DNA of 64,000 nucleotides. Origin: Candidatus Doudnabacteria bacterium RIFCSPHIGHO2_01_FULL_46_14. Lineage in GTDB: Bacteria > Patescibacteriota > Doudnabacteria > UBA920 > 2-01-FULL-46-14. Of the stretch, positions 11,049 through 35,229 are shown piece after piece (position 1 is the first letter of the stretch; each line of letters starts with the position of its first letter). The notes below the pieces were generated by a model. That model saw only the letters and a list, made by a program, of their open reading frames with translations. It ran no database searches and was not told the DNA's origin. The position numbers were made by a program, and so were the translations under genes. The DNA lies in NCBI GenBank assembly GCA_001779925.1, contig MFEK01000014.1, forward strand, positions 1,011 to 65,010, written 5' to 3'.

Positions 11049-11049
11049 T

Positions 11050-12806: not shown

Positions 12807-13913
12807 AAAATTTTAATTTGTACCGGGATTTTTCCTCCTGACGTGGGCGGTCCGGCAACCTATTCGAAAATTCTTGCAGAAGAACTGGTTAAACATGGCC
12901 ACGCGGTTAAGGTAATTACTTATGCTGGTCGTATTTATCCCCCTTCCCTTGAGAGAAGGGGGACTCTGGGAGAGGCGGATTTTGAATTGATCCGAATTCA
13001 ACGCAGCCGATTCAAACCTCTGCATTATTTCAGATTTTACCGTACCGTTCTGAAACACGGCCGAGACGTTGATGTGATTTACGCTCAAGGTCCGGTTTCA
13101 GAAGGATATCCGGCTTGTCTGGCGGCTAAGAAATTAAATAAACCACTCGCAGTAAAGATAACAGGAGATTACTCCTGGGAGCAGGCGATGGGCCGGGGTT
13201 TAACCGACGAGCTGATTGATGCGTTTCAGAACCTCTCTTTCTACCCTCCAAGAATCCAACGAATGCGCAGAATCCAGAAACTAGTTTGCGATTATGCAAA
13301 TATAATAATCACGCCCTCAGAATATTTAAAAAAGGTTGTTAGCGGTTGGGGGGTAGATCCGGGGAAAATTAGAGTTATTTATAATTCGGTAGAGATGCCA
13401 GAATCAATAATTACGAATCAAGAATCAAGACAAAAGCTAGGAATCCCCAAAGACAAATTTCTAATAGTCTCTTCTGGACGCAATGTACCGTGGAAAGGAT
13501 TTGAATTATTGAAGGAAGTTATGGCAGAATTACAGAAAGATCATCCTGAGATGATGCTGAAAATCCTGCATGATGCGCCGCGCGGGCTGCTCCATGAATA
13601 TATCCGGGCGGCAGATCTGTATGTGCTAAACACCGGCTATGAGGGGTTATCCAATACTCTCGTGGAAGTTCTGCGCCATAGGATACCTGTAATCACCACC
13701 AACGTCGGCGGCAACCCGGAGATAATCAGGGATGGCGAAAATGGGCTACTCGTGGAATACAATAATATAGAGCAGTTGAAAGACGCAATTTTGAGATTGT
13801 ACTCTGACAAAGAATTACGTAATAAATTACGTAATTCTTCCGGCCTGGAAAAATTCGATCTCGCGCAGATGATCAGTAAAACCGAGGAGGTTCTCAAACA
13901 ATGCGCGTCCTAA
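12804..13913 (+). CDS. Glycosyltransferase family 4 (GTG start from junction element)
   Basis: GT4 C-terminal domain (EGLSNTLVEVLRHRIPVITTNVGGNPEII.DGENGLLV). N-terminal-domain loop carries an in-frame GC palindromic insert (IYPPSLERRGTLGEADFE). Confidence 0.8.
   Translation: MKILICTGIFPPDVGGPATYSKILAEELVKHGHAVKVITYAGRIYPPSLERRGTLGEADFELIRIQRSRFKPLHYFRFYRTVLKHGRDVDVIYAQGPVSEGYPACLAAKKLNKPLAVKITGDYSWEQAMGRGLTDELIDAFQNLSFYPPRIQRMRRIQKLVCDYANIIITPSEYLKKVVSGWGVDPGKIRVIYNSVEMPESIITNQESRQKLGIPKDKFLIVSSGRNVPWKGFELLKEVMAELQKDHPEMMLKILHDAPRGLLHEYIRAADLYVLNTGYEGLSNTLVEVLRHRIPVITTNVGGNPEIIRDGENGLLVEYNNIEQLKDAILRLYSDKELRNKLRNSSGLEKFDLAQMISKTEEVLKQCAS
12949..12987. repeat. In-frame GC palindromic element within GT4 gene 12804..13913
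   Basis: CCCCCTTCCCTTGAGAGAAGGGGGACTCTGGGAGAGG. Encodes PPSLERRGTLGEA. Confidence 0.6.
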
Positions 13914-21309: not shown

Positions 21310-22410
21310 ATGCATCAATACGGCATTGATATAAATACGCTGGAGAAATTCATTACCAAGCCCCAGGCAGAAGAAAAGGACTGGGGACGGTTTTGTGTGG
21401 CTGTGGATTTGCCGGAGTACCGCCTCGAGCAGTATGAGATTTCTGCCGGTAAATCTTGCGAGCTGCAGACTGCACGCGGGCATGAGGTCACGATTTTTGT
21501 GGAGAGCGGAGTAGTGCGCGTGGACGACATAGAACTTACAGCACAGGAACTGGTGTCCAGTGAAGGCAGGCTTGTTATCATGGCCAAGGAAGACTCGATT
21601 GTCTACGCGTTTCATGGGCCGGCAGAGTATGGCAGCGTGTATCATCAGAAATCTAAGACTTCTGATTTTCGTGACAAATATTGGGGCTCGATCGAAACTA
21701 TTGTGAGTCGCGATTACGCGGCCAAGAGGCTAGTCGTAAGAAAAGAGCGGCACGCGAGTTTTGAGTACCACTGCCGCAAATTGGAAAGTTATTTTATTCA
21801 TTCGGGTAAACTACTTCTCCGTAATAGAGCGGGTCGCGGCGAGGATCGGTATTTTGAACTCGAAAAAGGGACTGCGACGATCACGCCGCCGGGACTCATG
21901 CACCAGCGGGGGGGATTGGAGGACACTGTTATCATTGAAATCTCCACGCGCGACGAGGACGGTGATTCGTATCTTGTGGAGGACGGCGCAAAACTACCCA
22001 TGCCCCGCCTCCGCCAAGGCTACGGCGGGCTGGATCGAGGTTCAGAGGAATATAAGGGCCGCAGGATTTGTTTTGATATTGATGGAGTCCTGCGCACTCA
22101 GACAGACGGCGATTATGAGAATGCCCAGCCAATCAAAGAGGCGATTGATTTCATAAACAAACTTTATAACGAAGGCTTTTGGATCACCCTTTATACCTCG
22201 AGCTTTATGGGACGTGCCAAAAATGATCAAAAAGCCGCGTACGAGGCAGGATTTGCATTTAATAAAAAACAGCTGGCTGGTTGGGGCGTAAAATACCACG
22301 AGCTGTTTATGGGCAAGCCGCCGACAGATTTGTTAATCGATGATCGGGCGTTATTTTACAATCAAGATTGGGCAGTGATTGAAAAGGAAATTCGGAGCAA
22401 GCTTCAATAA
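21310..22410 (+). CDS. Bicupin - HAD-like phosphatase fusion protein
   Basis: Two cupin-type beta-barrel segments (…GHEVTIFVESGVVRVDD…; …SYFIHSGKLLL…GTATITPPGLMHQRGG…). C-terminal HAD-type domain with CFDIDGVL (DxDG) and GKPPTDLLIDDRA. Confidence 0.5.
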   Translation: MHQYGIDINTLEKFITKPQAEEKDWGRFCVAVDLPEYRLEQYEISAGKSCELQTARGHEVTIFVESGVVRVDDIELTAQELVSSEGRLVIMAKEDSIVYAFHGPAEYGSVYHQKSKTSDFRDKYWGSIETIVSRDYAAKRLVVRKERHASFEYHCRKLESYFIHSGKLLLRNRAGRGEDRYFELEKGTATITPPGLMHQRGGLEDTVIIEISTRDEDGDSYLVEDGAKLPMPRLRQGYGGLDRGSEEYKGRRICFDIDGVLRTQTDGDYENAQPIKEAIDFINKLYNEGFWITLYTSSFMGRAKNDQKAAYEAGFAFNKKQLAGWGVKYHELFMGKPPTDLLIDDRALFYNQDWAVIEKEIRSKLQ

Positions 22411-22411
22411 C

Positions 22412-23110
22412 ATGAATTTAGAAGAAGCCAATATTTTAAAAATTCTAGTCTGCGAGCAAAACCGGCGGCTCCCGGAAACCGGTCTCGTTATTTTGACTGA
22501 AGGCAATGTTTCGCAGATTTCCTCTAATCGCAGTTTCATTGTCATCAAACCTTCCGGCGTGGAATATCATGATCTGGCCCCGGAGAAAATGGTAGTGGTG
22601 GATATGTCTGGGAAGGTTGTTGAGGGGGATTTGCGTCCATCTGTTGACACCTTTACTCATCTGGAAATTTACAAAAAATACTCGCATATCGGGGGCATTA
22701 CCCATACCCACTCCTCGTTTGCCACAGTGTTCGCGCAGATGCACAAACCAGTGCCGGCTTATGGCACTACTCACGCTGATGCTTTTGGCCAGGAGATTCC
22801 GGTGACGCGTCCGCTTTCCGATGACGAAATCACCGGCAATCTGGAGATCAACACCGGTCGGGTCATTTGCGAGGTTCTCGATCAGCGTCACGCGCGATGC
22901 GTGCTGGTGGCGAGCCACGGTCCGTTCGTGTTCGGCAAAGACGCTAAAGAGTCAGTTGACTGCGCGGCCATGGCCGAACAGGTGGCTATGATGGCCATCC
23001 TCGGGCAGTATCGCAGCCCGATTCAAGAAGCGCTTCTCAAAAAACATTTCGAGCGCAAGCACGGCAAGGATAAATATTACGGGCAACAGTTGGACCATGA
23101 CAAAATATAA
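22412..23110 (+). CDS. Class II aldolase/adducin family protein (L-ribulose-5-phosphate 4-epimerase-like)
   Basis: ATG at 22412. VIKPSGVEYHDL....VVVDMSGKVVEG; SVDTFTHLEIYKKYSHIGGITHTHSSFAT zinc-ligand histidine pattern. Confidence 0.7.
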   Translation: MNLEEANILKILVCEQNRRLPETGLVILTEGNVSQISSNRSFIVIKPSGVEYHDLAPEKMVVVDMSGKVVEGDLRPSVDTFTHLEIYKKYSHIGGITHTHSSFATVFAQMHKPVPAYGTTHADAFGQEIPVTRPLSDDEITGNLEINTGRVICEVLDQRHARCVLVASHGPFVFGKDAKESVDCAAMAEQVAMMAILGQYRSPIQEALLKKHFERKHGKDKYYGQQLDHDKI

Positions 23111-23762
23111 AGGCATAATTTTCGATTTCAATGGCGTTTTACTCTGGGACATCCCGCTTCATGAAAAAGGATGGGATCGGTTTGCACGCAGGCATCGCGG
23201 CGCTGGCTTATCTGAGCATGATTGGGATCATTTGAACGCAAAGAGCACTTGGGACACTATAGAGTATTTGCTGGGAAAAAAATTAACCAGGGAAGAGCTT
23301 GATCATTATGAGGCGGAAAAAGAGCTAGGGTATCAGGAAGAGCTTGGCGCTGACCCTGTTTTGTCTGCGGGAGCGGTTAGCCTTCTTGATAATCTGAAAT
23401 CGCGAAATATTCCCATGGCGGTCGCCACCTCTTCGAGCAAAATTAATATAGATTTTTTCTTGCGCACGTTTGGCCTGGAGAAATGGTTTCCTCTGGATCG
23501 CATAGTATATTTTGACGGGACTTTTCCGGCAAAACCTCACCCGGAGATGTATTTGCGCGCGGCAAAGACCATTGGGCTCAATGCGGGAGATTGCGTTGTG
23601 GTGGAAGATGCGATTCAGGGGATTATCTCCGCCAAAGCCGCCGGCGCAGGAATGATAATTGGCCTTGAATCTACCAAAGATTCGAAAGCCCTGCTGGCCG
23701 CGGGTGCGGATCAGAGTATTAAAACGCTCGAAGAGATCAAGCCGGAAGAATTATTCGTATGA
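23097..23762 (+). CDS. HAD-superfamily hydrolase (beta-phosphoglucomutase-like subfamily IA)
   Basis: GIIFDFNGVL (DxD-like motif I), ATSS (motif II), VVVEDAIQGIISAKAAG (motif IV). Confidence 0.75.
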   Translation: MTKYKGIIFDFNGVLLWDIPLHEKGWDRFARRHRGAGLSEHDWDHLNAKSTWDTIEYLLGKKLTREELDHYEAEKELGYQEELGADPVLSAGAVSLLDNLKSRNIPMAVATSSSKINIDFFLRTFGLEKWFPLDRIVYFDGTFPAKPHPEMYLRAAKTIGLNAGDCVVVEDAIQGIISAKAAGAGMIIGLESTKDSKALLAAGADQSIKTLEEIKPEELFV

Positions 23763-24100
23763 ATTGGACGATTCTAATTTTGATCGGTAGCCAGCTGCTT
23801 TTCACCGCCAGCGACACTCTCGCTAGAAGTTATATGAAAGATCATGGGTTTCATTTGGCTACTTTCTTCGCGCCATGGTTTTTATTTTATCTTTTGCTCA
23901 GGATGCCTGCAGTTCTCGGGCAGCTATATATATTTTCCTCAATCGAACTCGGAAAAACCATGGCTTTGTTTGCGGTAGTGACAATAATATTATCAAATTT
24001 AATCGGTCTTTTGCTTCTTAAAGAAGTCCTTTCAGTTTCCGCTTATGTTGGAATAGCGCTCGCAATTACAGCGTTTATTGTGCTATATTTTAGTAAATAA
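23759..24100 (+). CDS. Small 4-TM membrane protein (SMR/EamA-like; ArnE/ArnF-type flippase candidate)
   Basis: 113 aa, four hydrophobic helices. Context with GT-C and ArnC-like genes. Confidence 0.4.
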   Translation: MNWTILILIGSQLLFTASDTLARSYMKDHGFHLATFFAPWFLFYLLLRMPAVLGQLYIFSSIELGKTMALFAVVTIILSNLIGLLLLKEVLSVSAYVGIALAITAFIVLYFSK

Positions 24101-24101
24101 T

Positions 24102-24842
24102 ATGAAATTATTTCTTGATTCAGCTAATTTGCAAGATATTGAGGAAGCCCTGCAGGGCGGGTTTATTCGCGGCGTCACTACCAATCCTTCACTTTTGGCC
24201 AAAGAGCCAAAGGGTAGTTATGTTGGCCATGCTCAAAAGATTATTGAGCTAATACAGAAACACGGGGAGAATTTATCTCTGAGCGTTGAGGTTTTTACAA
24301 ACGACCAAAAAGAAATGATTTCTCAGGCCAAAGATTTTGTGAAGCAATTAAATTACAAGCAATTAGCCATAAAAATCCCGGTCAGCTACAAAGGCCAGTC
24401 CAACCTGAATGTTATGCGAGAGCTGACCTCTGAAGGGATAATTGTTAATTGCACAGCCGCGATGACCCCGCTGCAGCTTATGATGGCCGCTGCAAGCGGA
24501 GCAAAATACGTGAGCTTGTTTTACAATCGCCTCAGGGACGCAGAAAATGAAGAAACCTACAAAGCAGAAAGAGAAGCGCTCATCAAAAATAAAGTTGTTG
24601 AGGAGGCAGACTATGACCCCAACAAAGTTTTACACGAGACTGTGCCGCTCTTGATGGATTATCCGGATTCGGAAATCATTGTCGGCAGTATCAGGACAGT
24701 GCTCGATGTCAAAGAATCCGCGCTCGCTGGCGGTCACATTGTTACTGCGTCATTGAAGATCCTCAAAGACGCACTAATGCATTTCAAAACCGATGACAGC
24801 GTGGATAAATTCCTCAAAGATTTTGAATCGTGGATTAAATAA
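24102..24842 (+). CDS. Transaldolase / fructose-6-phosphate aldolase family (short form)
   Basis: MKLFLDSANLQDIEEALQGGFIRGVTTNPSLLAKE, the canonical N-terminus of short transaldolases. ATG at 24102. Confidence 0.8.
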   Translation: MKLFLDSANLQDIEEALQGGFIRGVTTNPSLLAKEPKGSYVGHAQKIIELIQKHGENLSLSVEVFTNDQKEMISQAKDFVKQLNYKQLAIKIPVSYKGQSNLNVMRELTSEGIIVNCTAAMTPLQLMMAAASGAKYVSLFYNRLRDAENEETYKAEREALIKNKVVEEADYDPNKVLHETVPLLMDYPDSEIIVGSIRTVLDVKESALAGGHIVTASLKILKDALMHFKTDDSVDKFLKDFESWIK

Positions 24843-24844
24843 CT

Positions 24845-25741
24845 ATGGTAAACTCTAACGAAAAAATCGTAGTTTTGGGCGCGGATCACAATGGTGTGGC
24901 TCTGAAAGCTGAGGTGAAAAAGCTCCTCGCAGGCCAGGGTTATACTTGCGTGGATATCGGTCCCTTTACGGATGAACAAAAGGTTGATTATGTTGATTAC
25001 GCCAAGACTCTCGGGCAGATCATGCAGAATGGGGAAGCGCGCTGGGGGGTTCTAGTGTGCGGCACAGGTGTCGGGATGGATATTGTAGCCAACCGTTTTT
25101 CGAATGTTCGGGCTTCGCTGGCGCACAGCGTGGATGTGGCCCATAAAACGCGTGAGCACAATGATGCCAATGTGCTCTGCCTCGGTTCCTGGGTGAACAG
25201 CACTGAAGACAATCTGGAAATCGTTCGCGCGTGGTTTGGCGGGGCGTTTGGCGAAGGCCGGCATGTGAAGCGCGTGGAAAAGACGAAAGACCATGACAAA
25301 AGCAAGATTGTGTTTACAAATGGTGTTTTCGATATTCTTCATAAAGGGCATATTGATCTTTTGAAATGGGCAAAATCTTTGGGTGGCAAACTGGTGGTAG
25401 GTATTAACTCGGACCGGGCCACGCGCGAGCTCAAAGGTCCAGAGAGGCCGATTCATAATGAGAATGACCGCAAGGCAATCCTTGAGAGTCTGGGAATGGT
25501 TGATGAGGTTGTGATTTTTGATGATACAAAAACTGAGGGTATTATTGCGCAGGTTCAGCCAGATATCCTCGTGAAAGGCGCGGAATGGACCGCAGATGAG
25601 GTTAGAAAGCGCGATAATATTCCTGATAACATCGAGGTTAAAGTTTTTCAGCTGTCGCTCAACCCGGATTTTTGCATGGAAAAATATTCAACCACGAGCG
25701 TGGTGGAAAAGCTGAAGGGCGATAAACACGATCATGCCTAA
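24845..25741 (+). CDS. Fusion: RpiB/LacA/LacB-type sugar-phosphate isomerase + HldE-domain-II-like heptose-1-phosphate adenylyltransferase
   Basis: N-terminus: KIVVLGADHNGVALK...GVLVCGTGVGMDIVANR (RpiB fold). C-terminus: KIVFTNGVFDILHKGHIDLL...GINSDRATRELKGPERP...VDEVVIFDDTKTEGII...PDILVKG, matching E. coli HldE domain II motif by motif. Confidence 0.75.
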   Translation: MVNSNEKIVVLGADHNGVALKAEVKKLLAGQGYTCVDIGPFTDEQKVDYVDYAKTLGQIMQNGEARWGVLVCGTGVGMDIVANRFSNVRASLAHSVDVAHKTREHNDANVLCLGSWVNSTEDNLEIVRAWFGGAFGEGRHVKRVEKTKDHDKSKIVFTNGVFDILHKGHIDLLKWAKSLGGKLVVGINSDRATRELKGPERPIHNENDRKAILESLGMVDEVVIFDDTKTEGIIAQVQPDILVKGAEWTADEVRKRDNIPDNIEVKVFQLSLNPDFCMEKYSTTSVVEKLKGDKHDHA

Positions 25742-26585
25742 GGTTATTGTTGTCGGTGACCTCATTTTAGACATCTATCACTATGGCCATCCCCTCAAAG
25801 ATTCAGTTGAGGGGCTTCTTGCTATTGGTGAGGATAAAACTGAAGCATCTTTTGGCGGCGCAGGGCTATTGGTCCGCAATATTGTCCAGCTCGGCGGGCG
25901 GGTTGATTTCGTTACTGTTATTGGAAATGATGAGTTTGGCGACCTCGCGCAGAAATTTATCCGTCAAAACTTAAAGAAAACATTTTTTGTCGAAAATGGC
26001 CGCAAGACTACGGTCAAAGAGAGGTTTGTGGTGAATGGCAAAAAGGTTTTGAAATGGAATCATTTGGATAATCGGCCGCTCAATCCCGCAATTCAGAACA
26101 GAATTTTGCTTTACCTGGCAAAAAATATTAGAGGTTACGATAAACTTATCATTTCTGACTATCGCCATGGCCTCATTTCGCAGAGCTTTGCCCGCGCTCT
26201 GGTTGCACTCGGCAAAAAATTTAAAAAGCCGGTTTATGTTGATTCGCAGATCGCTCAAAGCAAAGGCAACCATGCCTGGTATAAAGGTGCTGATTTAATG
26301 TGTTTGAATGAATTGGAAGCAAAAAGCATCAAGGATGAGATCGACATTCCCAACATAATTTTGAAGCTAGGATCAAAAGGCTCGCTCGCAGTCATTGAAG
26401 GAAAGAAAATCCGCACACCGGCATTTAAGGTAAAGGTTGTAGACACTACTGGCGCTGGTGATGCGTTTTTTGCAGCGCTTGTGATCTCGAATTTTCCGCC
26501 AACTACCTCTGACTTGAAACGCGCCAACAAATGGGCAGCTTTGACCACAACAAAAATGGGCACCGAGCTTCCAAAAACCAGATAA
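25734..26585 (+). CDS. PfkB-family carbohydrate kinase, HldE-domain-I-like (heptose 7-phosphate kinase candidate)
   Basis: VIVVGDLILDIYHYG (compare HldE VMVVGDVMLDRYWYG). GGAGLLVRNIVQLGG. C-terminal VDTTGAGDAFFAAL anion-hole motif. Confidence 0.75.
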   Translation: MPKVIVVGDLILDIYHYGHPLKDSVEGLLAIGEDKTEASFGGAGLLVRNIVQLGGRVDFVTVIGNDEFGDLAQKFIRQNLKKTFFVENGRKTTVKERFVVNGKKVLKWNHLDNRPLNPAIQNRILLYLAKNIRGYDKLIISDYRHGLISQSFARALVALGKKFKKPVYVDSQIAQSKGNHAWYKGADLMCLNELEAKSIKDEIDIPNIILKLGSKGSLAVIEGKKIRTPAFKVKVVDTTGAGDAFFAALVISNFPPTTSDLKRANKWAALTTTKMGTELPKTR

Positions 26586-26633
26586 GAATCTGATATAATT
26601 GACAATCAAAACATTCAGGATTAGGATAATCAT

Positions 26634-26807
26634 ATGTCAGAAGACAAGCTGAGCAAAATTTTAGAAGTCGTTATCCACCTAAAAGATAAGATAGATAACG
26701 ATATGGTGACGAAAGACGAATTCGCAGAATTCAGGAGCGAGAACACTGCTCATATTGACGGTTTTATTAAGCTACATCAAACACTGGATACGTTGCGGGC
26801 GGGTTAG
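26634..26807 (+). CDS. Hypothetical small protein (57 aa), not in the ORF track
   Basis: ATG preceded by AGGA. MSEDKLSKILEVVIHLKDKIDNDMVTKDEFAEFRSENTAHIDGFIKLHQTLDTLRAG. No recognisable family. Confidence 0.25.
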   Translation: MSEDKLSKILEVVIHLKDKIDNDMVTKDEFAEFRSENTAHIDGFIKLHQTLDTLRAG

Positions 26808-26870
26808 GTAGGGGTGGTGAAAAGTTTCACCCTCCCCTTACCCCTCCCCTCAAGGGAGGGGAATAATGAG
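26803..26870. repeat. Full-length intergenic copy of the GC-rich poly-C/poly-G palindromic element
   Basis: GGGTTAGGTAGGGGTGGTGAAAAGTTTCACCCTCCCCTTACCCCTCCCCTCAAGGGAGGGGAATAATGAGG. Nested palindromes GGTGAAA/TTTCACC and CCCCTCCC/GGGAGGGG. The track ORF 26814..27005 is merely its translation. Confidence 0.75.
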
Positions 26871-27009
26871 GATTGCAAAAGGAGACCGTACAGATACAAT
26901 CAAAGCCTGCAATCTTATTTGGGGATGATAGGTCACAGCGATGGTTACGATCTCAGCATAGTCTTAAAGAATAACTTTTTCATACCTCGCGAGAAACGGA
27001 AATAACAAG

Positions 27010-27024
27010 TATAATGTCGGTATG
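27010..27024 (+). promoter_or_regulatory. Candidate leaderless promoter: TATAAT -10 box 6 nt upstream of the ATG
   Basis: gTATAATgtcggtATG. No SD and no room for a leader, so the transcript would start at or next to the start codon of the GT9 gene. Confidence 0.4.
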
Positions 27025-28026
27025 AAAATTCTTGTTGCTCAGCCCGGGAAAATCGGGGATTTGGTTTGTACTACGCCGCTTTTCCGCACACTTGCGGAAA
27101 ATTTCAAAGCGCCGGTGGATATTATTGCCGGGCCGTTTGCTCTGGATTTGCTCAAAGGCAATGATAGTGTTAGGGAAGTCTATTCGAGGAAGGTAGAGCC
27201 GGATATCCTGCGAAAAGAAAACTACACTCACATTCTCGTGCTCATGCCGAGTGTGGAGATTTGGGGACTCGCTAGAAAAGCGAGCATTTCGAATATCTGG
27301 AGCACGATTCATCCGAAAATGACCCGCCGTGAGCGGCTGTTTTCGTTTTTTTATCTGACTCGGAAATTTCCCTACAACTTCTCCTCTGCCCAGCAGCATT
27401 ATCTGCAGATGGGGCAGGCTCTGGGAGCCGCGAATCTGATTCAGAAGCGAGAGATTCGTTACGGCTCAGAGGACGAACAAAAGATAGCCGAGTTTTTGCG
27501 TGAGCAAAATCTGCAGGATAAAAAACTCGTTGGCATTTCCGTGACTGCAGGCAAGGATTTCAAAGAGTGGGGGAATCAAAATTACAAACAGCTCGTGGAT
27601 AAACTTAACAGCGAAAATTTTACGGTTATTGCTGTGGGCACCAAGGAAGAACGGCCAAAATTGGAGACGCTACAAAATTCACTTGCCCGCCAGGATATGT
27701 TTTTGAATGTAGCAGGGGATTTTAAACTCTCTGAATTTGCCGCGCTCGCCGTGAACTTTAGAGCCTTTATTGCCGCAGACACTGGGCCCCTGTATATTGC
27801 CGATGCGCTCGGCATCCCAGTTGTGGATCTCATGGGTCCCTGCTATTCTGGCGGACAAAAGCCTCTTGGCGAAAATGCCGTGCTAATCGGCGAATGCCTT
27901 AAACCAGAACACCCGAAATGCCGGATGATGGATAGCCCGAATTATTTAAAAGAAGAATTCCAGCGTTGCATGGCGGAAATCAGGTTTGAGGAAGTTTGGC
28001 AGGGTTTCCAAAGCTTAAAGCTATGA
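27022..28026 (+). CDS. Glycosyltransferase family 9 (heptosyltransferase-like)
   Basis: MKILVAQPGKIGDLVCTTPLFRTLAENFK.APVDII, the GT9 N-terminal signature (compare WaaC/WaaF: ..SSMGDV..T.PAL..L...P). Confidence 0.7.
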   Translation: MKILVAQPGKIGDLVCTTPLFRTLAENFKAPVDIIAGPFALDLLKGNDSVREVYSRKVEPDILRKENYTHILVLMPSVEIWGLARKASISNIWSTIHPKMTRRERLFSFFYLTRKFPYNFSSAQQHYLQMGQALGAANLIQKREIRYGSEDEQKIAEFLREQNLQDKKLVGISVTAGKDFKEWGNQNYKQLVDKLNSENFTVIAVGTKEERPKLETLQNSLARQDMFLNVAGDFKLSEFAALAVNFRAFIAADTGPLYIADALGIPVVDLMGPCYSGGQKPLGENAVLIGECLKPEHPKCRMMDSPNYLKEEFQRCMAEIRFEEVWQGFQSLKL

Positions 28027-29466: not shown

Positions 29467-30321
29467 ATGGAACGGAAAAAGAGAGTTTTGGTTATTGGGG
29501 CGGGTAAACGAGCGCAGGGAGCGATCATTCCAGCTCTTCTTGGCTTGTCTGCCGAGTATGAGATCGTGGCGGTTTACGCACGGAAAAAAAGGGAAATTAG
29601 GGTAATGGGGGAGCGGTTTACAATAATAGATAGTTTAGAGCAGGTGGATTTTTCTTCGCTTGATCTCATTATTGCGGCTGTCACCCTGGCAAGCGTGCCG
29701 GATGTTCTGCGGAAACTTACCAAATATGACGTGAGACATATCCGTATCATGCTCGATACCCCAGTGGTCAGGCCAAGGGATATTTTTAGTTTGCGAATGC
29801 TCAAGAATTTCCGGCACGCATCCGTAAGCGAGGATTCTATTGTCCTCGCGCCCTTTCTTGAAGCCAAAAGAGCAGGGGAAATTAGGGAAATGCGGTTTAT
29901 CCATAGCGGCTATCGTTACCACGCCCTCGCAGCTATGAAAATGATGACGGGAAACAATTACGTAAAAAGAGTGATCAATAAATACGCGAATGGCAAAATC
30001 GCGGAGCGGCATTTTTTGTTTCCGGGCGGCGCGCGTGGGGTCATCATTGAGCCCCGTGACTACAGCATTGGGAAACTGGAAATTGCAGGTTCAGCAGGCT
30101 TTTTCAATTATGAGTTTGCCGGTAAATCGATGGCGGATTTAAAAAATAAAAGCCTCGCGAAACTCATTGCTGACGAAGGCCTTGTTTATTCTGCGGCAGA
30201 CGGCGTTTATGATATGCTGGCCATCAGCTGCAGCGAAAAGCTTGGGAAGTTTTTTGATTTTCCAACGCGCCAATACTCGTTGTTATTATCGCTGATAAGA
30301 TTTATAATAGGTCATGGCTGA
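29467..30321 (+). CDS. Hypothetical protein with Gfo/Idh/MocA-like N-terminal Rossmann segment
   Basis: RVLVIGAGKRAQGAIIPAL...EIVAVYARKK. The rest is unassigned. Confidence 0.35.
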   Translation: MERKKRVLVIGAGKRAQGAIIPALLGLSAEYEIVAVYARKKREIRVMGERFTIIDSLEQVDFSSLDLIIAAVTLASVPDVLRKLTKYDVRHIRIMLDTPVVRPRDIFSLRMLKNFRHASVSEDSIVLAPFLEAKRAGEIREMRFIHSGYRYHALAAMKMMTGNNYVKRVINKYANGKIAERHFLFPGGARGVIIEPRDYSIGKLEIAGSAGFFNYEFAGKSMADLKNKSLAKLIADEGLVYSAADGVYDMLAISCSEKLGKFFDFPTRQYSLLLSLIRFIIGHG

Positions 30322-31258
30322 AAAAGTTTTTATCACCGGCGCCAGCGGATTTATAGGAGCAAATTTAATGCGGCGTTTATTGGCTGATGGCTTTGAGGTT
30401 ACTGCCGCTATCCGGCCGGGATCAAAAAATTTTTGGCGACTCGAGGACGTAACCGATCAAATCCGGATTCTACGGCTGGACCTGACGGACCAAAAAGATA
30501 CCGCAGAAAAGCTCGGACAAATAGGGCCAAATTACATTTTTCATCTCGCCGCCTACGGTGCTTACCCGGGGCAAATTGACAGCGAGCAAATGTGGAGAAC
30601 GAATTTATTTGCCGCGATAAATTTGATTGAGGCAGCCAAGGTTGTTGGCTTCCAAAAGATGATCATTGCCGGCAGCTCCTCGGAATATGGCAAGAAATCC
30701 GAGGCTATGAAAGAAAGCGACAGACTCGAACCCAGCACTATTTATGGGGTGAGCAAAGCCGCCTCCACTCTGTATTGTCAATATAGAGCCCGAGAGGAAA
30801 AATTACCGCTCGCGATTTTACGGCCGTTTTCTGTCTACGGACCGTGGGAAGAGCCAGGAAGGCTGGCGCCCCGATTGATTGGCCGGGCTTTGAAAAATGA
30901 GCCGCTGGAACTGGTGGGCAGTAAAACCGTGCGCGATTTTATATACATAGATGACGTGGTCGAGGCTTGCTTAAAAAGCATGAATGAAGATAAGATTAAC
31001 GGGCAGATTATGAATATTTGTTCGGGGATGCAGACTGAAATAGGAGAAATGGCTGAGCAGGTGGTCAGTATCACCGGCAGTAAATCGCGGGTCCAGCGCG
31101 GCAGTTATGAAGCGCGAAGCTTTGACACTGACATTTGGGTTGGTAATCCTGAAAAAACTAAAAAACTTCTCGGTTGGCAAGCCAGGGTCGCGCTCAAGGA
31201 AGGGATTCGCCAGACTGTTGAATGGTACAAATCCCATAAGCATTATTATGAACATTGA
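30314..31258 (+). CDS. NAD-dependent epimerase/dehydratase (extended SDR; NDP-sugar 4,6-dehydratase/epimerase candidate)
   Basis: KVFITGASGFIGANLMRRLLADG. YGVSKAAST (YxxxK). Confidence 0.75.
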   Translation: MAEKVFITGASGFIGANLMRRLLADGFEVTAAIRPGSKNFWRLEDVTDQIRILRLDLTDQKDTAEKLGQIGPNYIFHLAAYGAYPGQIDSEQMWRTNLFAAINLIEAAKVVGFQKMIIAGSSSEYGKKSEAMKESDRLEPSTIYGVSKAASTLYCQYRAREEKLPLAILRPFSVYGPWEEPGRLAPRLIGRALKNEPLELVGSKTVRDFIYIDDVVEACLKSMNEDKINGQIMNICSGMQTEIGEMAEQVVSITGSKSRVQRGSYEARSFDTDIWVGNPEKTKKLLGWQARVALKEGIRQTVEWYKSHKHYYEH

Positions 31259-32045
31259 TTATCGTCAATTGGAGCAGCACGCGCAAAACATCCGTCGTAA
31301 CGTCATTAAGATGGCTGTCCGCGCCAAATCCGCGCATCTGGGAGGAGTACTGTCCATAGTAGAAATTTTGACGGTGCTGTATTTTCAGATTTTGAAGATT
31401 GATCCGCAGGCCGCGCACGACCCTGACCGCGACCGTTTGATTTTCAGCAAGGGACACGCCGGACTGGCTTTGTACGCCGCTCTGGTAGAGAGAGGTTTCG
31501 CCGCTGAAGAGATTCTAGAAACTTTCTATAAAGACGATACAATGCTTACCGCTCATCCGACAAAGGACTGCATGCCGGGCGTGGAAACTACGACCGGTTC
31601 TCTCGGTCACGGTTTGCCTCTGGGAACAGGGCTTGCCTGGGCCGCTAAACACGACAACCAGCCGTTTCGAACGTTTGTCCTCATGAGCGACGGGGAGTGC
31701 GACGGAGGCTCGACCTGGGAAAGCATTTTGTTTGCCGGCCATCACCAGATGGATAACCTTATCGCCGTGGTTGATTACAACAAAATCCAGGGCTTCGGCA
31801 GAACAGCGGAAGTTTTGAATCTCGAACCATTCGTAAAAAAATGGGAGTCTTTCAACTGGGCAGTACAAGAAGTTGATGGTCACGACTTGGCCAAGCTTCA
31901 GGAAGTTCTTTCACAAGTTCCTTTCCAAACAGGAAAGCCCAGCGTGGTAATCGCCCATACTATAAAAGGTAAAGGCACAAGCCTTGAGGACACCCTGGAT
32001 TCTCATTATAAAATTCCGCCGGAATATGCGACCGACCTTCATTAA
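31248..32045 (+). CDS. Transketolase, N-terminal (ThDP pyrophosphate-binding) subunit of a split transketolase
   Basis: HLGGVLSIVEIL...DPDRDRLIFSKGHAGLALYAALVERGF; GSLGHGLPLGTGLAWAAK; MSDGECDGGSTWES. Confidence 0.8.
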   Translation: MNIDYRQLEQHAQNIRRNVIKMAVRAKSAHLGGVLSIVEILTVLYFQILKIDPQAAHDPDRDRLIFSKGHAGLALYAALVERGFAAEEILETFYKDDTMLTAHPTKDCMPGVETTTGSLGHGLPLGTGLAWAAKHDNQPFRTFVLMSDGECDGGSTWESILFAGHHQMDNLIAVVDYNKIQGFGRTAEVLNLEPFVKKWESFNWAVQEVDGHDLAKLQEVLSQVPFQTGKPSVVIAHTIKGKGTSLEDTLDSHYKIPPEYATDLH

Positions 32046-32955
32046 AACTTTGGTAGAACTGGCGCAAAAAGATGAACGAATCTTTTTACTGACCGGGGAT
32101 CTGGGCTACGCGGCGCTGGAGCCATTCCGGGAAAAATTTCCGAAACGATTTATCAACATGGGAGTTGCCGAACAAAATATGGCTGGTTTTGCGGCTGGCC
32201 TGGCCATGTCCGGCAAACTGCCGGTGGTTTACTCTATTGCCACTTTTGTGACGCTCAAGACGCTTGAGCAAGTCCGCAATGATATTTGTTATCAAAATCT
32301 AAATGTTAAAATCGTCGGGGTCGGGTCAGGCCTGACTTATTCTCAGTACGGGGCGACCCATCATTCACAGGAGGACATCGGCCTCATGCGCCTTTTACCC
32401 AATATGAAAGTAATCTGTCCCGGTGATCCCGTAGAGGTAGAGGCCGCAACGAGAGCGATGATGGCTGATCCGCAGCCCTGTTATCTGCGGATCGGATCGC
32501 GGGGCGAACCAGTACTGCATGAACCACCAATTGATTTTCAAATCGGCAAGGGGATCACGCTCCGGCCGGGAAAAGACATCGCGCTTGTGGCTACCGGCAA
32601 TATGCTAGAAAATACGATGAAAGCCGCAGAGCTGTTGCGCGGCAGCGGTTTATCGCCGCAAGTTGTAAGTATGCATACGGTCAAGCCGCTCGATGCGAAT
32701 TTATTGAAAGAGCTGTTCATAAATTTTCAGCAAGTATTCACGATCGAGGAACACAGTCAAATAGGCGGCTTTGGAAGCGCGGTCGCGGAACTGGCGGCTG
32801 AGCTTCATGACGGGCGGGCTAGTTTGCATCGAATCGCGCTGCCTGATCAGTTTCAGAAACTCGGTGCTTGGCTCGCGAGACTGCGTCAGGAAAACGGTTT
32901 GAGTCCGGAAGGGATTGCCGAAACCGTAAGAAAAATATATAATCAGACCTCATGA
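32025..32955 (+). CDS. Transketolase, C-terminal (pyrimidine-binding) subunit
   Basis: RFINMGVAEQNMAGFAAGLAMSGKLPVVYSIATF. Transketolase C-terminal-domain pattern. 21-bp overlap with the N-terminal subunit gene. Confidence 0.8.
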
Positions 32956-33920
32956 TTACAGATAAAAAAATCTCCGCGGTAATTGCCTGCTATATGGATG
33001 GCCAGTCCATTCCGGTTATGTATCAGCGTTTGACCGCAGTATTTCGTCAGGTAACGCCTTATTATGAAATAATTTTCGTTAACGACGGCAGTCTTGATGA
33101 TTCGGAAGAGATTTTAACCGCGCTCGCAAGTAAAGATAAGCGCGTAGTCGCGGTGAATCACGCCCGCAATTTCAGTTCCCAAAACGCTTTTCTTTCCGGA
33201 ATGCATGTTGCTACCGGTGATGCAGTGGTATTGCTCGATGGTGATTTACAGGATCCGCCGGAGATGATCCCGGATTTTGTCCGCAAATGGCTGGAAGGGT
33301 ATGATGTTGTTTACGGCGTCAGATCCAAACGGGAAGCGAGTTTGTTTCTGCGCGCGAGCTATAAACTCTTTTATCGGATTTTTCAAAAGCTGTCATATGT
33401 GCCGGTGCCGCTTGACGCAGGCGATTTTTCCTTACTCGACCGGAAAATCGTGAATGTTTTGGACGCGATGCCGGAGCGGGATATCTTTTTACGCGGATTG
33501 CGCGCCTGGGTCGGGTTTAAGCAAGTGGGGGTTTCTTATGTCCGGCCGGAGCGGATGTTTGGCCGCAGCAACAATAATCTGATAAAGAATTTTCGCTGGG
33601 CCAGAAAAGGGATTTTTTCATTTTCTTATGCTCCCCTGGAATGGGTTTCTTATGTTGCCGGGATAGTCACGGTTTTAGCAGCCCTCACTATCGTCGTTTA
33701 CGTAGCGCTCTTTTTTATTTACGGAGCTCCACAAGGATTTATCACCACCTTGGTCATCACTTTGTTTTTGGGCACCATACAACTGCTGGCATTGTCCGTG
33801 ATCGGCGAGTATGTGGCTAAGATCTTTGAAGAGGTCAAATCTCGTCCTAAATATATTGTGAAGAGCATATTTAATGATCCAAGAAATAAACCTCGCGATC
33901 CGGGTTTGCCAGAATCGTGA
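32952..33920 (+). CDS. GT2 polyprenyl-phosphate glycosyltransferase (ArnC/GtrB/DPM1-like) with C-terminal TM helices
   Basis: ISAVIACYMDGQSI; EIIFVNDGSLDDS; VLLDGDLQDPPEMIPDFV; two C-terminal TM helices. Confidence 0.8.
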   Translation: MITDKKISAVIACYMDGQSIPVMYQRLTAVFRQVTPYYEIIFVNDGSLDDSEEILTALASKDKRVVAVNHARNFSSQNAFLSGMHVATGDAVVLLDGDLQDPPEMIPDFVRKWLEGYDVVYGVRSKREASLFLRASYKLFYRIFQKLSYVPVPLDAGDFSLLDRKIVNVLDAMPERDIFLRGLRAWVGFKQVGVSYVRPERMFGRSNNNLIKNFRWARKGIFSFSYAPLEWVSYVAGIVTVLAALTIVVYVALFFIYGAPQGFITTLVITLFLGTIQLLALSVIGEYVAKIFEEVKSRPKYIVKSIFNDPRNKPRDPGLPES

Positions 33921-33948
33921 TATTATTGTATAATTTGAAGACTTAAAT

Positions 33949-35229
33949 ATGGATAACCAAGAGTTTAGACCCGGCATTGATCGGGTATTATATACTAAAG
34001 CGGTTTACGGGGAAGAAGAAATTGCCGCGGTTGCCAAGGCCCTTCGCGAGGGATGGCTTGGCAATGGGAAGTACACGGAAGAATTTGAGCAAAAGACCGC
34101 TGAGCTATATGGGAAGAAATACGGGCTGTTCGTCAACTCCGGCACTTCGGCCAACATGCTGGCCATGGAGATCGCCAAACTCCCCAAGGGCAGTGAAGTC
34201 ATTACCCAGGCCTGTACGTTTCCGGCAACTCTGTCTCCCATTGTTCAGCAGGGGTTCATCCCGGTGTTCGTTGATTCCAAGATCGGTTCCTATAACATTG
34301 ATTTAGATCAAATCGAGCCGGCAATTTCTGAAAATACGAAAGCCGTTTTTATTTCGCATGCCCTGGGTAACGTCAATCACATGCGCCGTTTGCGGGAGAT
34401 TTGCGATAAATATAAATTGCTGTTTATAGAGGATGCCTGCGACACGATCGGCTGTAAATTTGCTGGCCGGCCTACCGGCGAATATTCGGACATTACTACT
34501 GCGAGTTTCTATGCCGCGCACAATATCACCGCGGGCGGCGGCGGCGGCATGGTTATGGCGAGCGACCCGAAACTCATTTTAGAGGCGAGAATGCTTAACG
34601 ACTGGGGGAGAGCCATGCCTACCTCCGCGGACGAAAATCTGGGAGAGCGTTTTGCCGGCAAGCTGGCCGATACTGATTTTGACGCGAAATTTACTTTTAT
34701 CAAGCAAACCTACAATTTCAAAGCAGTGGAGATGCAAGCGGCATTCGGGCTGGAACAGCTGAAAAAATTGCCGCAGTTTAACGCCAGACGCGCCAGGAAT
34801 TTCCGGCGCCTTTATGATTTTTTTGATCAGCACCGAGAACATTTTTTGCTGCCGGAAATTTTGCCGCAAGCCGAAGTTTATCTGATTGCTTTTCCGGTGA
34901 CAATCAAACCGGAGTCTCCCATAAATCGCAAAGAGCTGATGCTGTTTCTCGAAGAAAACAAAATTCAAACCCGTCCTCTGTTTGCCGGCAATATCCTGCG
35001 GCATCCGGCATTCAAAAACATTACCAAGCGCGTTCACGGCCAAATGGTCAACTCTGACCTGGTTATGAAATATAGCTTCCTGATCGGGTGTCATCATGGC
35101 ATGACTGATAGCATGCTTGACTATATGCTGGGCATTTTCGAAAAGTTTTTGAAAATGATGGAAACCAGGAAAACGCAAAAGATTTTTGAACAAGTCGAGT
35201 TAATTGATTTAAGAGACGACATTCCGTGA
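33949..35229 (+). CDS. DegT/DnrJ/EryC1/StrS-family PLP-dependent sugar aminotransferase/dehydratase
   Basis: ALREGWLGNGKYTEEFEQKTAELYGKKYGLFVNSGTSANMLAM; FISHALGNV; GCHHGMTDSMLDYM. Confidence 0.8.
   Translation: MDNQEFRPGIDRVLYTKAVYGEEEIAAVAKALREGWLGNGKYTEEFEQKTAELYGKKYGLFVNSGTSANMLAMEIAKLPKGSEVITQACTFPATLSPIVQQGFIPVFVDSKIGSYNIDLDQIEPAISENTKAVFISHALGNVNHMRRLREICDKYKLLFIEDACDTIGCKFAGRPTGEYSDITTASFYAAHNITAGGGGGMVMASDPKLILEARMLNDWGRAMPTSADENLGERFAGKLADTDFDAKFTFIKQTYNFKAVEMQAAFGLEQLKKLPQFNARRARNFRRLYDFFDQHREHFLLPEILPQAEVYLIAFPVTIKPESPINRKELMLFLEENKIQTRPLFAGNILRHPAFKNITKRVHGQMVNSDLVMKYSFLIGCHHGMTDSMLDYMLGIFEKFLKMMETRKTQKIFEQVELIDLRDDIP

Follow-up and report, generated by a model that had tools for sequence, protein, structure and literature searches.

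Genes and domains of the cassette

A run of plus-strand genes between 21310 and 28026 of the window, that is, the whole 64-kb stretch of DNA analysed, encodes sugar-phosphate enzymes and a glycosyltransferase (Table 1). The original prediction described the genes at 24102-28026 as a non-canonical ADP-heptose-type module lacking GmhA. All of its open reading frames (ORFs) were recovered with the expected coordinates, strand and domain identities, and the Pfam models for RpiB, CTP_transf_like, PfkB and Glyco_transf_9 matched every ORF in which they were anticipated. The absence of GmhA also holds within the 64-kb window, where a search for SIS/GmhA among ORFs of at least 70 aa (E ≤ 10, HMMER filters off) returned nothing. 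Overlooked at that stage were the bicupin in 21310-22410, the AraD-like gene and the conservation of the cassette across phyla. A split transketolase lies near the module in this window.

Table 1. Genes of the cassette in the window and the matches on which their assignments are based
Feature	Position	Strand	Evidence
Bicupin (~1-240)::AfhF-like HAD-IIIA phosphatase (~250-366)	21310..22410	+	HMM and solved relatives
AraD-like class II aldolase/epimerase, probable start 22412	22379..23110	+	Pfam Aldolase_II, E 2.1e-43
HAD-IA (beta-phosphoglucomutase-like) hydrolase	23097..23762	+	Pfam Hydrolase/HAD_2, E 1e-26
Small membrane protein, 113 aa, inside the cassette	23759..24100	+	Weak SMR/EbrB-like NCBIfam match, E 0.005
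Short (subfamily-5) transaldolase, ~35-aa insertion	24102..24842	+	Pfam TAL_FSA, E 1.7e-38
RpiB-like (9-150)::HldC/HldE-II-like nucleotidyltransferase (157-290) fusion	24845..25741	+	Pfam, NCBIfam, alignments
HldA/HldE-I-like PfkB kinase	25734..26585	+	Pfam PfkB, E 8.9e-26
GT9 glycosyltransferase (heptosyltransferase family)	27022..28026	+	Pfam Glyco_transf_9, 79.3 bits (cutoff 22)

The N-terminal 240 aa of the first protein are also part of the module and form a bicupin, in which the cupin metal site is complete and there are invariant basic residues. This bicupin is a candidate metal-dependent sugar-phosphate isomerase. That dioxygenases and decarboxylases also match this fold, and that the best PDB profile match is an oxalate decarboxylase, counts against the reading that we favor below. 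With 34 representatives at E ≤ 1e-30 among 1.84 billion, the bicupins are a very small family, and at the loci inspected they almost always co-occur with the fusion of RpiB and nucleotidyltransferase (NT) domains. The C-terminal HAD-IIIA domain is of the "EcbF-BcbF capsule phosphatase" type, and its closest characterized relative is AfhF (9iqw, 30% identity), experimentally characterized as a D-arabinose-1,5-diphosphate phosphatase (PMC13326640). This domain is a candidate for the distal phosphatase of a sugar-1,n-bisphosphate.

The nearest solved relatives of the putative transaldolase are the transaldolases 1vpx, 3s0c and 3r8r (E ~1e-27), with FSA reaching just ~1e-9. The alignment places Glu in "SVEVF", Phe in "SLFYNR" and Lys in "AIKIPVS", the first two of which we take to be Tal-type residues, and the enzyme is proposed to make the ketose-phosphate backbone. 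For the PfkB protein, proposed to be an anomeric (O1) kinase, the best NCBIfam model is rfaE_dom_I (141.8 bits, far under the cutoff of 345) and the best solved relative is the Burkholderia heptose-7-P kinase HldA (4e84, E 2.9e-15). The GT9 protein is closest to WaaF (1psw) among solved structures and matches the NCBIfam heptosyltransferase II and III models under their cutoffs. Its donor motif reads DTGPLY, and the canonical His is retained in 19 of 26 cassette GT9s; we propose that it transfers an ADP-activated sugar.

As predicted, HldE-like kinase and adenylyltransferase domains are both present but split, the latter being fused to RpiB. Pfam assigns residues 9-146 of the fusion to LacAB_rpiB (E 2e-44) and 157-288 to CTP_transf_like (E 1.7e-23). 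The NT domain finds its best match among solved proteins in 5x9q (E 4.9e-25). It retains the HxGH, NSD, RP, VKG and (Y)STT motifs, STT being a described hallmark (PMC11573728), and scores 143.6 bits against rfaE_dom_II (TIGR02199), under the cutoff of 181.5. Since kinase and NT both fall below the NCBIfam HldE equivalog cutoffs, their substrates may differ from those of HldE in kind, beyond detail.

The RpiB domain exceeds the cutoff of the NCBIfam RpiB subfamily model PRK05571 (156.3 versus 135 bits) and, in an end-to-end alignment with solved RpiBs, retains the catalytic residues D14, H15, C72, T74, H105, N106, R139, H140 and R143. N16, K101 and W116 are family-specific and present in 35/35 fusions. 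Position 116 is Arg or Lys in 74 of 79 ordinary RpiBs; in the fusions, W116 stands where MtRpiB has Arg113, a phosphate ligand that LacAB, a hexose-phosphate enzyme, does not use either (PMC3755991). Lys46, which resembles Arg39 of LacB, occurs in only 24/35 fusions, another point against the favored reading. Together with a canonical gmhA elsewhere, a grouping with the ribose-5-phosphate isomerases of central metabolism would speak against a pathway variant, and for the grouping the outcome is divided: by HMM score the domain goes with RpiB and not with LacA, LacB or DerI, but the fusions form a distinct sub-clade, alongside which the rest of the cassette was nearly always present in the loci examined.

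Conservation and spread

Among 20 non-redundant, fully covered metagenome loci anchored on the bicupin, PfkB and the transaldolase occurred in all, the RpiB::NT fusion, HAD-IIIA and GT9 in 19 each, and GmhA in none. Nine distinct loci anchored on the fusion all encoded PfkB, the bicupin, the transaldolase and a HAD protein, and eight encoded GT9; the bicupin is thus as constant as RpiB. The PfkB gene directly follows the fusion gene in most loci. By hand count, the longest contig of at least 31 of 63 fusion clusters (contigs ≥5 kb) was identical in size to that of a bicupin cluster. Parts of the cassette are further linked by gene fusions, namely, RpiB::NT, NT::PfkB, NT::RpiB::NT, bicupin::HAD-IIIA, bicupin::HAD_2 (P0226) and bicupin::Tal (P0221). 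The locus with NT::PfkB (L112), whose NT is of the cassette type, is a natural variant with bicupin::HAD, the transaldolase and GT9, and RpiB is absent from it.

Other genes are less constant. The AraD-like protein (PRK08193, L-ribulose-5-P 4-epimerase, 269.5 bits; cutoff 257) is accessory, occurring in 4/20 non-redundant loci and in several gene neighborhoods from CPR and DPANN. The HAD-IA hydrolase is accessory in this window; in three loci (L114, L170 and L173) this type is the sole HAD phosphatase, without HAD-IIIA. The 113-aa membrane protein had no match in a Pfam search and was not found as a conserved member of other cassettes. Transketolase, found in 2/20 loci, is no conserved member either.

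Hosts of the cassette comprise ultra-small CPR bacteria, a Woesearchaeota archaeon (L001) and soil Acidobacteria of the Acidobacteriaceae, the last including isolate AB60 as well as contigs of up to 3.4 Mb. In one case (L085) the cassette lies inside a Wzi/Wza/Wzz capsule locus. In one acidobacterial locus type (L153/154/156) its neighbors are an MsbA-like gene and a gene for a canonical HldE of 514 aa. The domain calls and the lack of GmhA from all 20 loci support a non-canonical ADP-heptose-type activation module, and co-occurrence across phyla argues for a dedicated rather than a housekeeping one. That a dedicated transaldolase is required is argued from conservation alone. A further point against the favored reading is that, in CPR genomes, the transaldolase and RpiB of the cassette might double as the sole pentose-phosphate enzymes of the organism.

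A proposed route and its alternatives

We propose that 21310-28026 is a self-contained, horizontally spread cassette by which an ADP-activated higher-carbon aldose would be made and transferred without GmhA, a reading to which we give a probability of roughly 0.6. The catalytic steps, their order and the sugar are predicted from homology and gene context. The transaldolase would extend an aldose phosphate by a transferred dihydroxyacetone unit, yielding a C7 (from erythrose-4-P) or C8 (from pentose-5-P) ketose phosphate; C8 formation from pentose-5-P is reportedly carried out by LmbR in lincomycin biosynthesis. A non-SIS aldose-ketose isomerase would convert this product to an aldose phosphate, the HldA-like PfkB kinase would add a phosphate at O1, and the AfhF-like HAD phosphatase would take off the distal one. 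The HldC-like NT domain would then form the ADP-sugar, or possibly another NDP-sugar, for transfer by GT9 onto a cell-surface glycan. Most likely, one of the two isomerase-type domains provides the transaldolase with its aldose acceptor and the second isomerizes what the transaldolase makes, and we lean slightly toward the bicupin rather than RpiB as the GmhA analog. We know of no pathway that accounts for paired isomerases in one route. The extra second NT in many acidobacterial cassettes has no explanation in this scheme. The product is probably a C7 or C8 sugar other than ordinary ADP-manno-heptose, since W116 alters the RpiB phosphate site in every fusion and a canonical HldE stands beside some cassettes; this favors the earlier suggestion that the pathway acts on a different sugar phosphate.

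The alternative suggestion, that RpiB has replaced GmhA, is not established, with the bicupin equally constant (9/9) and L112 devoid of RpiB. Here, RpiB would isomerize transaldolase-made sedoheptulose-7-P (S7P) to heptose-7-P, kinase, HAD and NT would yield ADP-heptose for GT9, and the bicupin would be an accessory epimerase or isomerase. We regard this as possible but doubtful. Its isomerase is fused to NT in 19/20 loci, as GmhA is in tridomain isomerase/kinase/NT enzymes (PMC11573728). Trp in place of the phosphate-binding Arg, with the invariant N16 and K101, fits a longer substrate, and the canonical donor motif of heptosyltransferases is retained in most GT9s of the cassette. However, to our knowledge, characterized RpiB/LacAB enzymes all yield 2R aldoses (ribose, allose, galactose), so that the product would be gluco- and not manno-configured like the 2S heptose made by GmhA; the ketoses that they accept are 3R,4R or 3S,4S, whereas S7P is 3S,4R. 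Moreover, Acidobacteriaceae have S7P as an ordinary metabolite, so that a transaldolase dedicated to it would be superfluous, L112 keeps NT, kinase, transaldolase, bicupin::HAD and GT9 without RpiB, and the constant bicupin has no role. Least probable to us is a set of non-oxidative pentose-phosphate genes (tal, rpiB, araD and split transketolase) within a glycan locus, with NT, kinase and GT9 as an ordinary ADP-heptose branch served by a gmhA elsewhere. The RpiB score, the complete catalytic residues, the name "ribose 5-phosphate isomerase B" given to the fusion by several sources, the nearby transketolase and a SIS_2 gene 3 kb upstream of one cassette (L108) would agree with this, as would the dependence of small CPR genomes on the pentose-phosphate pathway (PMC9166423). 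Yet the gene set stays together in CPR, DPANN archaea and multi-megabase Acidobacteriaceae, its tiny bicupin family almost always accompanies the fusion in the loci examined, the RpiB signature substitutions are universal among the fusions, and transketolase is not conserved.

Two further alternatives draw on known systems. A pentose route like the phage Afh system, which we consider improbable, would run from R5P to Ru5P by RpiB, to D-arabinose-5-P by the bicupin (PMI/lyxose-isomerase-like), to the 1,5-bisphosphate by the kinase, to arabinose-1-P by the HAD and to NDP-arabinose by NT. AfhF is the nearest characterized relative of the HAD domain, and two isomerases with an expected opposite C2 specificity would work in sequence; but the transaldolase of all 20 loci is left without a role, the pentose-phosphate-binding Arg is gone from RpiB, and the kinase, NT and GT9, being of heptose-type families, differ from AfhE and Aat, which the phage system uses. 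An octose route, drawn by analogy, is likewise possible but doubtful: RpiB or the bicupin would supply a pentose-5-phosphate (R5P, A5P or Lyx5P), the transaldolase octulose-8-P and the other isomerase octose-8-P, from which kinase, phosphatase and NT would form an ADP-octose for transfer by GT9. Each constant member would have a function in it, the dedicated transaldolase and the two isomerases among them, and coexistence with canonical HldE favors a product other than ADP-manno-heptose. On the other hand, we know of no report of an octose in the surface glycans of these groups, the kinase, NT and GT9 are nearest to heptose enzymes, and an RpiB supplying just R5P would leave its altered phosphate site unexplained. 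The precedent is lincosamide clusters, in which LmbR (transaldolase), LmbN (isomerase), LmbP (kinase), LmbK (phosphatase) and LmbO (nucleotidyltransferase) lead to GDP-octose (PMC12945683). The cassette has the transaldolase family alone in common with these enzymes and differs in the other families, so that the analogy is a functional one only.

Composition and distribution of the cassette

The window amounts to a long locus for glycan biosynthesis, on one strand and rich in GT4s, GT2s, PMT_2/GT-C proteins, SDRs, and aminotransferases. Its RpiB fusion matches a protein of a Candidatus Doudnabacteria (CPR) MAG at 100% identity. The open reading frames (ORFs) listed in the original prediction are real, lie head to tail on the plus strand, and carry the domains named for them, as judged by HMM searches. 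They include a transaldolase (Tal), a fusion of an RpiB-like isomerase domain with a nucleotidyltransferase domain (RpiB::NT), a PfkB kinase, and a GT9 glycosyltransferase; together with a bicupin::HAD-IIIA protein, of which the original prediction named the HAD part, they are here called the cassette. GmhA, the SIS-domain sedoheptulose-7-phosphate isomerase of the standard ADP-heptose route, had been claimed to be missing, and this held for the 64-kb window: a SIS profile search with HMMER filters off returned no SIS/GmhA match in any ORF of at least 70 aa, even at E ≤ 10.

Features of the window, with positions, strands, and basis of assignment
Feature	Position	Strand	Basis or remark
1272-aa ORF	15-3833		No Pfam match; 53% GC in this stretch vs 44-50% in most of the window
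PMT_2/GT-C protein	4642-6078	-	
Tandem ~275-aa ORFs	7283-8113 and 8091-8909		NAD-binding and central UDP-glucose/GDP-mannose dehydrogenase domains, without the C-terminal domain
PMT_2/GT-C protein	11050-12723		
Bicupin::HAD-IIIA	21310-22410	+	
113-aa membrane protein	23759-24100		Weak SMR/EbrB-like match; inside the cassette
Tal	24102-24842	+	Pfam TAL_FSA, E 1.7e-38
RpiB::NT fusion	24845-25741	+	LacAB_rpiB, residues 9-146 (E 2e-44); CTP_transf_like, residues 157-288 (E 1.7e-23)
PfkB kinase	25734-26585	+	PfkB, E 8.9e-26
Gap, kinase to GT9	26586-27021		436 bp; promoter-like site 26599-26627 (10/12 matches); 57-aa ORF by gene callers
GT9	27022-28026	+	Glyco_transf_9, 79.3 bits (cutoff 22)
SDR epimerase/dehydratase	30314-31258		
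Split transketolase	N-terminal half to 32045; C-terminal half 31984-32955		
GT2	32952-33920		
DegT-type PLP enzyme	33949-35229		
Acetolactate-synthase-type ThDP enzyme	35226-37046		

Exact-protein look-ups of fusion homologs yielded nine distinct genomic contexts (the window and loci L001, L081, L083, L085, L170, L171, L172, and L173). A PfkB kinase gene neighbors the fusion in all nine, directly following it in most, and a TAL_FSA gene is always nearby, as is a gene for a protein of about 240 aa, often HAD-fused, with no Pfam match or only a faint cupin match. This protein is a homolog of the bicupin of the window; GT9 was found in eight of the nine contexts. A metagenome scan anchored on the bicupin, and hence independent of RpiB, gave 80 loci, of which 20 had enough flanking sequence after de-duplication. 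PfkB and Tal were present in all 20 of these non-redundant loci, RpiB::NT and GT9 in 19 each, and HAD-IIIA in 19, the remaining locus having HAD-IA. AraD (4/20) and transketolase (2/20) were rare, the latter being no conserved member of the cassette, and GmhA was found in none of the 20. The single SIS_2 (GmhA-like) gene found near any cassette (L108, 297-935) belongs to the same glycan cluster as the fusion and sits 3 kb upstream of it, separated by a GT4, an ORF without Pfam match, and an FkbM methyltransferase.

Among the hosts are CPR bacteria, a Woesearchaeota archaeon (L001, the one useful locus among the matches listed in a profile search of genome contigs with the fusion alignment), and Acidobacteriaceae, where the named matches are Acidobacteria bacterium AB60 and Terracidiphilus, on contigs of up to 3.4 Mb. 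The L085 cassette sits in a capsule locus of Gram-negative type, alongside Wzi, Wza, Wzz, and MurJ. In one Acidobacteriaceae locus type (L153/154/156), the cassette adjoins genes for an ABC transporter resembling MsbA and for a canonical bifunctional HldE of 514 aa. Neither a PADLOC search nor a search of viral contigs gave a match.

Downstream of the cassette, the window holds a second sugar-modification module (30314-37046), whose enzymes suggest two-carbon branch chemistry on a nucleotide sugar. Its GT2, the small membrane protein inside the cassette, and the two PMT_2/GT-C proteins may together resemble a system for lipid-linked sugar transfer of the Arn type. The tandem short dehydrogenase ORFs may have arisen by duplication of a truncated form, or represent an unusual short type of the enzyme. 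An Rfam search of the whole window found no family. In one CPR-type cassette, a NUDIX hydrolase gene (L173, 9857-10300), which could encode an ADP-sugar pyrophosphatase, lies between kinase and bicupin.

The candidate isomerases and activating enzymes

The RpiB domain of the fusion has the complete fold of the RpiB/LacAB superfamily (RpiB/AlsB, LacA/LacB, DerI), can be aligned with solved RpiBs over its full length, and has RpiB as its best HMM match. The RpiB subfamily model PRK05571 (NCBIfam) scores 156.3 bits on the N-terminal half of the fusion (cutoff 135), and the RpiB equivalog TIGR01120 falls just below its cutoff (137.5 vs 138.65 bits). Public annotations of the fusion read "ribose 5-phosphate isomerase B," "RpiB/LacA/LacB family sugar-phosphate isomerase," or "rfaE nucleotidyltransferase"; the name "FAD synthase," attached to the homolog P0115, can be rejected, considering 18.7 bits for FAD_syn vs 143.6 for rfaE_dom_II. 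We compared 35 non-redundant fusions, 47-73% identical to the window protein, with 79 canonical single-domain RpiBs from among the matches listed in the genome-contig profile search. D14, H15, C72, T74, H105, N106, R139, H140, and R143 are invariant in all 35 fusions and align with the solved RpiBs, so that the Cys/Thr/His/Asn/Asp-His catalytic set and the GRHxxR phosphate-binding helix are kept. Unlike other members of the superfamily, the domain is always NT-fused and inside the cassette in the loci examined, and it has gained N16, K101, and W116 as invariants (35/35), where ordinary RpiBs have Ala/Gly, Leu/Met, and Arg/Lys (74/79), respectively.

The active site of RpiB is located at the dimer interface. 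W116 replaces the beta5/alpha5 phosphate-binding Arg in every fusion and corresponds to Arg113 of MtRpiB and Arg110 of the E. coli enzyme, with equivalences to MtRpiB and LacB taken from alignment offsets and published residue numbers. Arg113 of MtRpiB is a phosphate ligand for pentose phosphate; in LacAB, which acts on hexose phosphates, this Arg is not used and LacB Arg39 serves instead, in a pocket about 3 Å longer (PMC3755991). At the position equivalent to LacB Arg39, 24 of the 35 fusions have Lys46 and the others Ser. A full LacAB-like switch is thus only half true, W116 being universal and the compensating Lys not. We infer from these alignments that the substrate of the RpiB domain is probably altered and possibly longer.

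The bicupin provides a second candidate isomerase. Its AF2 model has a pLDDT of 90.8, and its second barrel contains a complete metal site, whose residues E/H152, H154, E159, and H198 line up with the OxdC metal ligands (His-His-Glu-His); many members read HFH, the canonical HxH, at this site. R121, K123, K139, and K157 are invariant and R140 nearly so. Cupin-type sugar(-phosphate) isomerases (PMI, cPGI, D-lyxose isomerase, IolB/KduI) share the cupin barrel and the His/His(Glu)/Glu/His metal site, although sequence resemblance to D-lyxose isomerase, cupin PGI, and PMI is weak. The most economical reading of these features is that the bicupin would act as an aldose-ketose isomerase on a phosphosugar. 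The family is small (of 1.84 billion cluster representatives, 34 match it at E ≤ 1e-30 and 75 at E ≤ 1e-10) and occurs alone, as bicupin::HAD-IIIA in the window, as bicupin::HAD_2, or as bicupin::Tal. The HAD-IIIA domain matches the EcbF-BcbF/AfhF type, and no GmhB model is among its NCBIfam matches.

The NT half of the fusion is closest to HldE domain II (TIGR02199), at 143.6 bits vs a cutoff of 181.5, and forms a clade of its own, apart from stand-alone and HldE-type NTs; the E. coli GmhA and HldE-II sequences that served as seeds or references were approximate. Its best solved relative, 5x9q, was deposited as a "putative cytidylyltransferase" and is presumably HldC of B. pseudomallei. The HxGH, NSD, RP, and VKG motifs are retained, as is a C-terminal (Y)STT, and the STT motif is the hallmark that Tang et al. 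(PMC11573728) described for heptose nucleotidyltransferases. The longer architectures RpiB::NT::NT and NT::RpiB::NT also occur, and a stand-alone second NT lies beside GT9 in 8 of the 20 bicupin-anchored loci. Such a second HldC-like NT is found beside GT9 in many Acidobacteriaceae-type cassettes (L128-L169; e.g., L153, 11876-12478, minus strand); in protein P0071 it is joined as NT::RpiB::NT, with an FLEGRSTT motif, linked to NTP promiscuity (PMC11573728), in the first NT.

For the kinase, the closest model is HldE domain I (rfaE_dom_I, NCBIfam; 141.8 bits vs a cutoff of 345) and the best solved relative is the Burkholderia heptose-7-phosphate kinase HldA (4e84, E 2.9e-15); ribokinases match it in the C-terminal ATP region only. 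The transaldolase is of the true type rather than FSA, its closest solved relatives being 1vpx, 3s0c, and 3r8r (FSA, ~1e-9), and it carries an insertion of about 35 aa. Its alignment contains the Glu in "SVEVF," the Phe in "SLFYNR," and the Lys in "AIKIPVS," which we take to be functional transaldolase residues. GT9 has WaaF as its nearest solved relative and stays under the NCBIfam equivalog cutoffs for HepI, II, and III. The canonical DSGxMH donor motif is kept in 19 of 26 cassette GT9s, and in the other seven, those of the window and of the CPR-type loci L091, L097, L112, L114, L115, and L171, its His is replaced by Tyr (DTGP[LVI]Y or DSGPLY). We rejected the idea that this exchange marks a new donor sugar, as it is confined to seven CPR-type cassettes.

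Proposed route and its product

In the proposed route, Tal would generate a ketose phosphate, which a non-SIS isomerase would convert to an aldose phosphate; PfkB would then phosphorylate O1, HAD would remove the distal phosphate, NT would form an ADP-sugar, and GT9 would transfer the ADP-activated sugar. Because both isomerase candidates are near-obligatory, the likeliest arrangement has one on each side of Tal, the pre-Tal enzyme converting a central ketose phosphate to an unusual aldose acceptor and the post-Tal enzyme acting on the Tal product. That the GmhA-like post-Tal enzyme is the bicupin has close to an even chance in our view. This assignment is favored by a cassette without RpiB (L112), by the existence of the bicupin::Tal fusion, and by stereochemistry: as far as is known, Tal products all share the 3S,4R configuration of fructose-6-phosphate, and PMI-type and lyxose-isomerase-type cupins handle 3S,4R. 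The opposite assignment, with RpiB in this position, is a lesser though serious possibility, favored by the fusion to NT, as for GmhA in tridomain enzymes, and by the remodeled phosphate site; some other arrangement of isomerases seems rather unlikely. The original prediction was partly supported: it was right in describing a non-canonical, GmhA-less module, probably for a different sugar, but its proposal of RpiB as a substitute for GmhA appears premature in light of the rival bicupin and L112. The L112 cassette (9893-13144) has the order bicupin::HAD, Tal, NT::PfkB (481 aa), with a ROK-family gene after it; upstream are GT9, B12-binding radical-SAM, inositol-monophosphatase-family, and AAA_33 kinase genes. 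Its kinase-fused NT scores 204.8 bits on the cassette-type model vs 173.9 on the stand-alone-type model.

Concerning the sugar, a C7 product fits the heptose-type kinase, NT, and GT9, and a C8 product, formed by an LmbR-like extension of a pentose phosphate, would by analogy best account for a Tal dedicated to the cassette and for its second isomerase. An Afh-type pentose route, named after the phage UDP-D-arabinose pathway, to whose phosphatase AfhF the HAD-IIIA domain is homologous (30% identity), would leave Tal without a role. A housekeeping pentose-phosphate operon, to which RpiB annotations of the fusion would point, is rejected on the conservation of the cassette across phyla and its presence in large Acidobacteriaceae genomes, as free-living hosts with genomes of such size would have no need of a second RpiB and Tal for housekeeping. 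Likewise, a genome with a standard HldE would need no further complete set of activating enzymes for one and the same sugar, and the co-occurrence of canonical HldE thus suggests a product other than plain ADP-manno-heptose. Taken as a whole, we assign a probability of roughly 0.35 to the reading that the cassette encodes a previously unknown route, in which Tal performs chain extension and two non-SIS isomerases, a longer-substrate RpiB derivative and a metal-dependent bicupin, replace GmhA, yielding a new sugar, an ADP-octose or a non-manno ADP-heptose, that decorates surface glycans of CPR, DPANN, and Acidobacteriaceae.

ADP-heptose-type metabolites are building blocks of the bacterial envelope and potent innate-immune agonists, and the current surveys of their biosynthetic enzymes that we know of recognize GmhA-based routes only. 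With the cassette, these would be joined by a route that does without GmhA and assembles its carbon backbone itself. Genomes with such a route would come out as heptose-negative in standard pathway models such as KEGG, or the fusion would be mis-annotated as housekeeping RpiB. The cassette would also illustrate how an RpiB scaffold can be retuned in nature to something other than ribose-5-phosphate, and would give a lead to the almost unknown surface chemistry of CPR and DPANN cells, directly testable in the cultured Acidobacteriaceae that carry it.

Relation to known nucleotide-sugar pathways

The four-step activation logic and GT9 transfer are already known. Literature searches (RpiB and heptose; cupin, sedoheptulose, and heptose; CPR and heptosyltransferase) found no description of an RpiB-derived domain and/or a bicupin taking the place of GmhA, nor of a built-in transaldolase, an AfhF-type phosphatase, or the RpiB::NT architecture in such a pathway. 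The reference is the canonical ADP-L-glycero-beta-D-manno-heptose pathway (GmhA, HldE or HldA and HldC, GmhB, HldD; WaaC/WaaF), which follows the same logic from an aldose phosphate via an anomeric PfkB kinase, a HAD phosphatase, and an HxGH NT to GT9, and whose HldA, HldC, and WaaF are homologous to the cassette kinase, NT, and GT9. In contrast to it, the place of SIS-type GmhA is taken in the cassette by a dedicated transaldolase, an RpiB-like domain, and a bicupin. The phosphatase matches the AfhF/EcbF-BcbF type rather than GmhB, the NT belongs to a separate clade and is fused to RpiB, and kinase and NT remain under the HldE equivalog cutoffs.

Multidomain NDP-heptose enzymes (kinase/NT and GmhA/kinase/NT; Tang et al. 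2024, summarized in PMC11573728) likewise combine an isomerase with a heptose-type NT and share the C-terminal xSTT motif with the cassette NT. They differ in that the fused isomerase of the cassette has the RpiB fold instead of SIS, its kinase stands alone outside L112 (NT::PfkB), and motif position 5 is Tyr and not Arg/Cys; RpiB::NT is absent from the three NT architectures that Tang et al. catalogued (PMC11573728).

In the phage Afh pathway, which serves DNA arabinosylation, AfhF strips the distal phosphate from a sugar-1,n-bisphosphate, and the four-step logic is common to both systems. However, the phage uses a SIS arabinose-5-phosphate isomerase and a bifunctional enzyme, AfhE, that belongs to another NT family, has no transaldolase, and transfers its pentose product to DNA.

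To our knowledge, the lincosamide GDP-octose pathway is the sole described nucleotide-sugar route with a dedicated transaldolase for its ketose phosphate. There, the transaldolase LmbR builds the ketose phosphate, and the isomerase LmbN, the kinase LmbP, the phosphatase LmbK, and the nucleotidyltransferase LmbO follow (PMC12945683), in a sequence like that proposed for the cassette. The Tal-type enzyme found in 20/20 loci would be the counterpart of LmbR in role, but the lincosamide pathway makes a GDP-sugar for antibiotic biosynthesis in Streptomyces and has no GT9. LmbN is a SIS protein, the RpiB, bicupin, PfkB, and CTP_transf_like families of the cassette are not, and, apart from the transaldolase, the enzyme families of the cassette presumably differ from those of the Lmb pathway.
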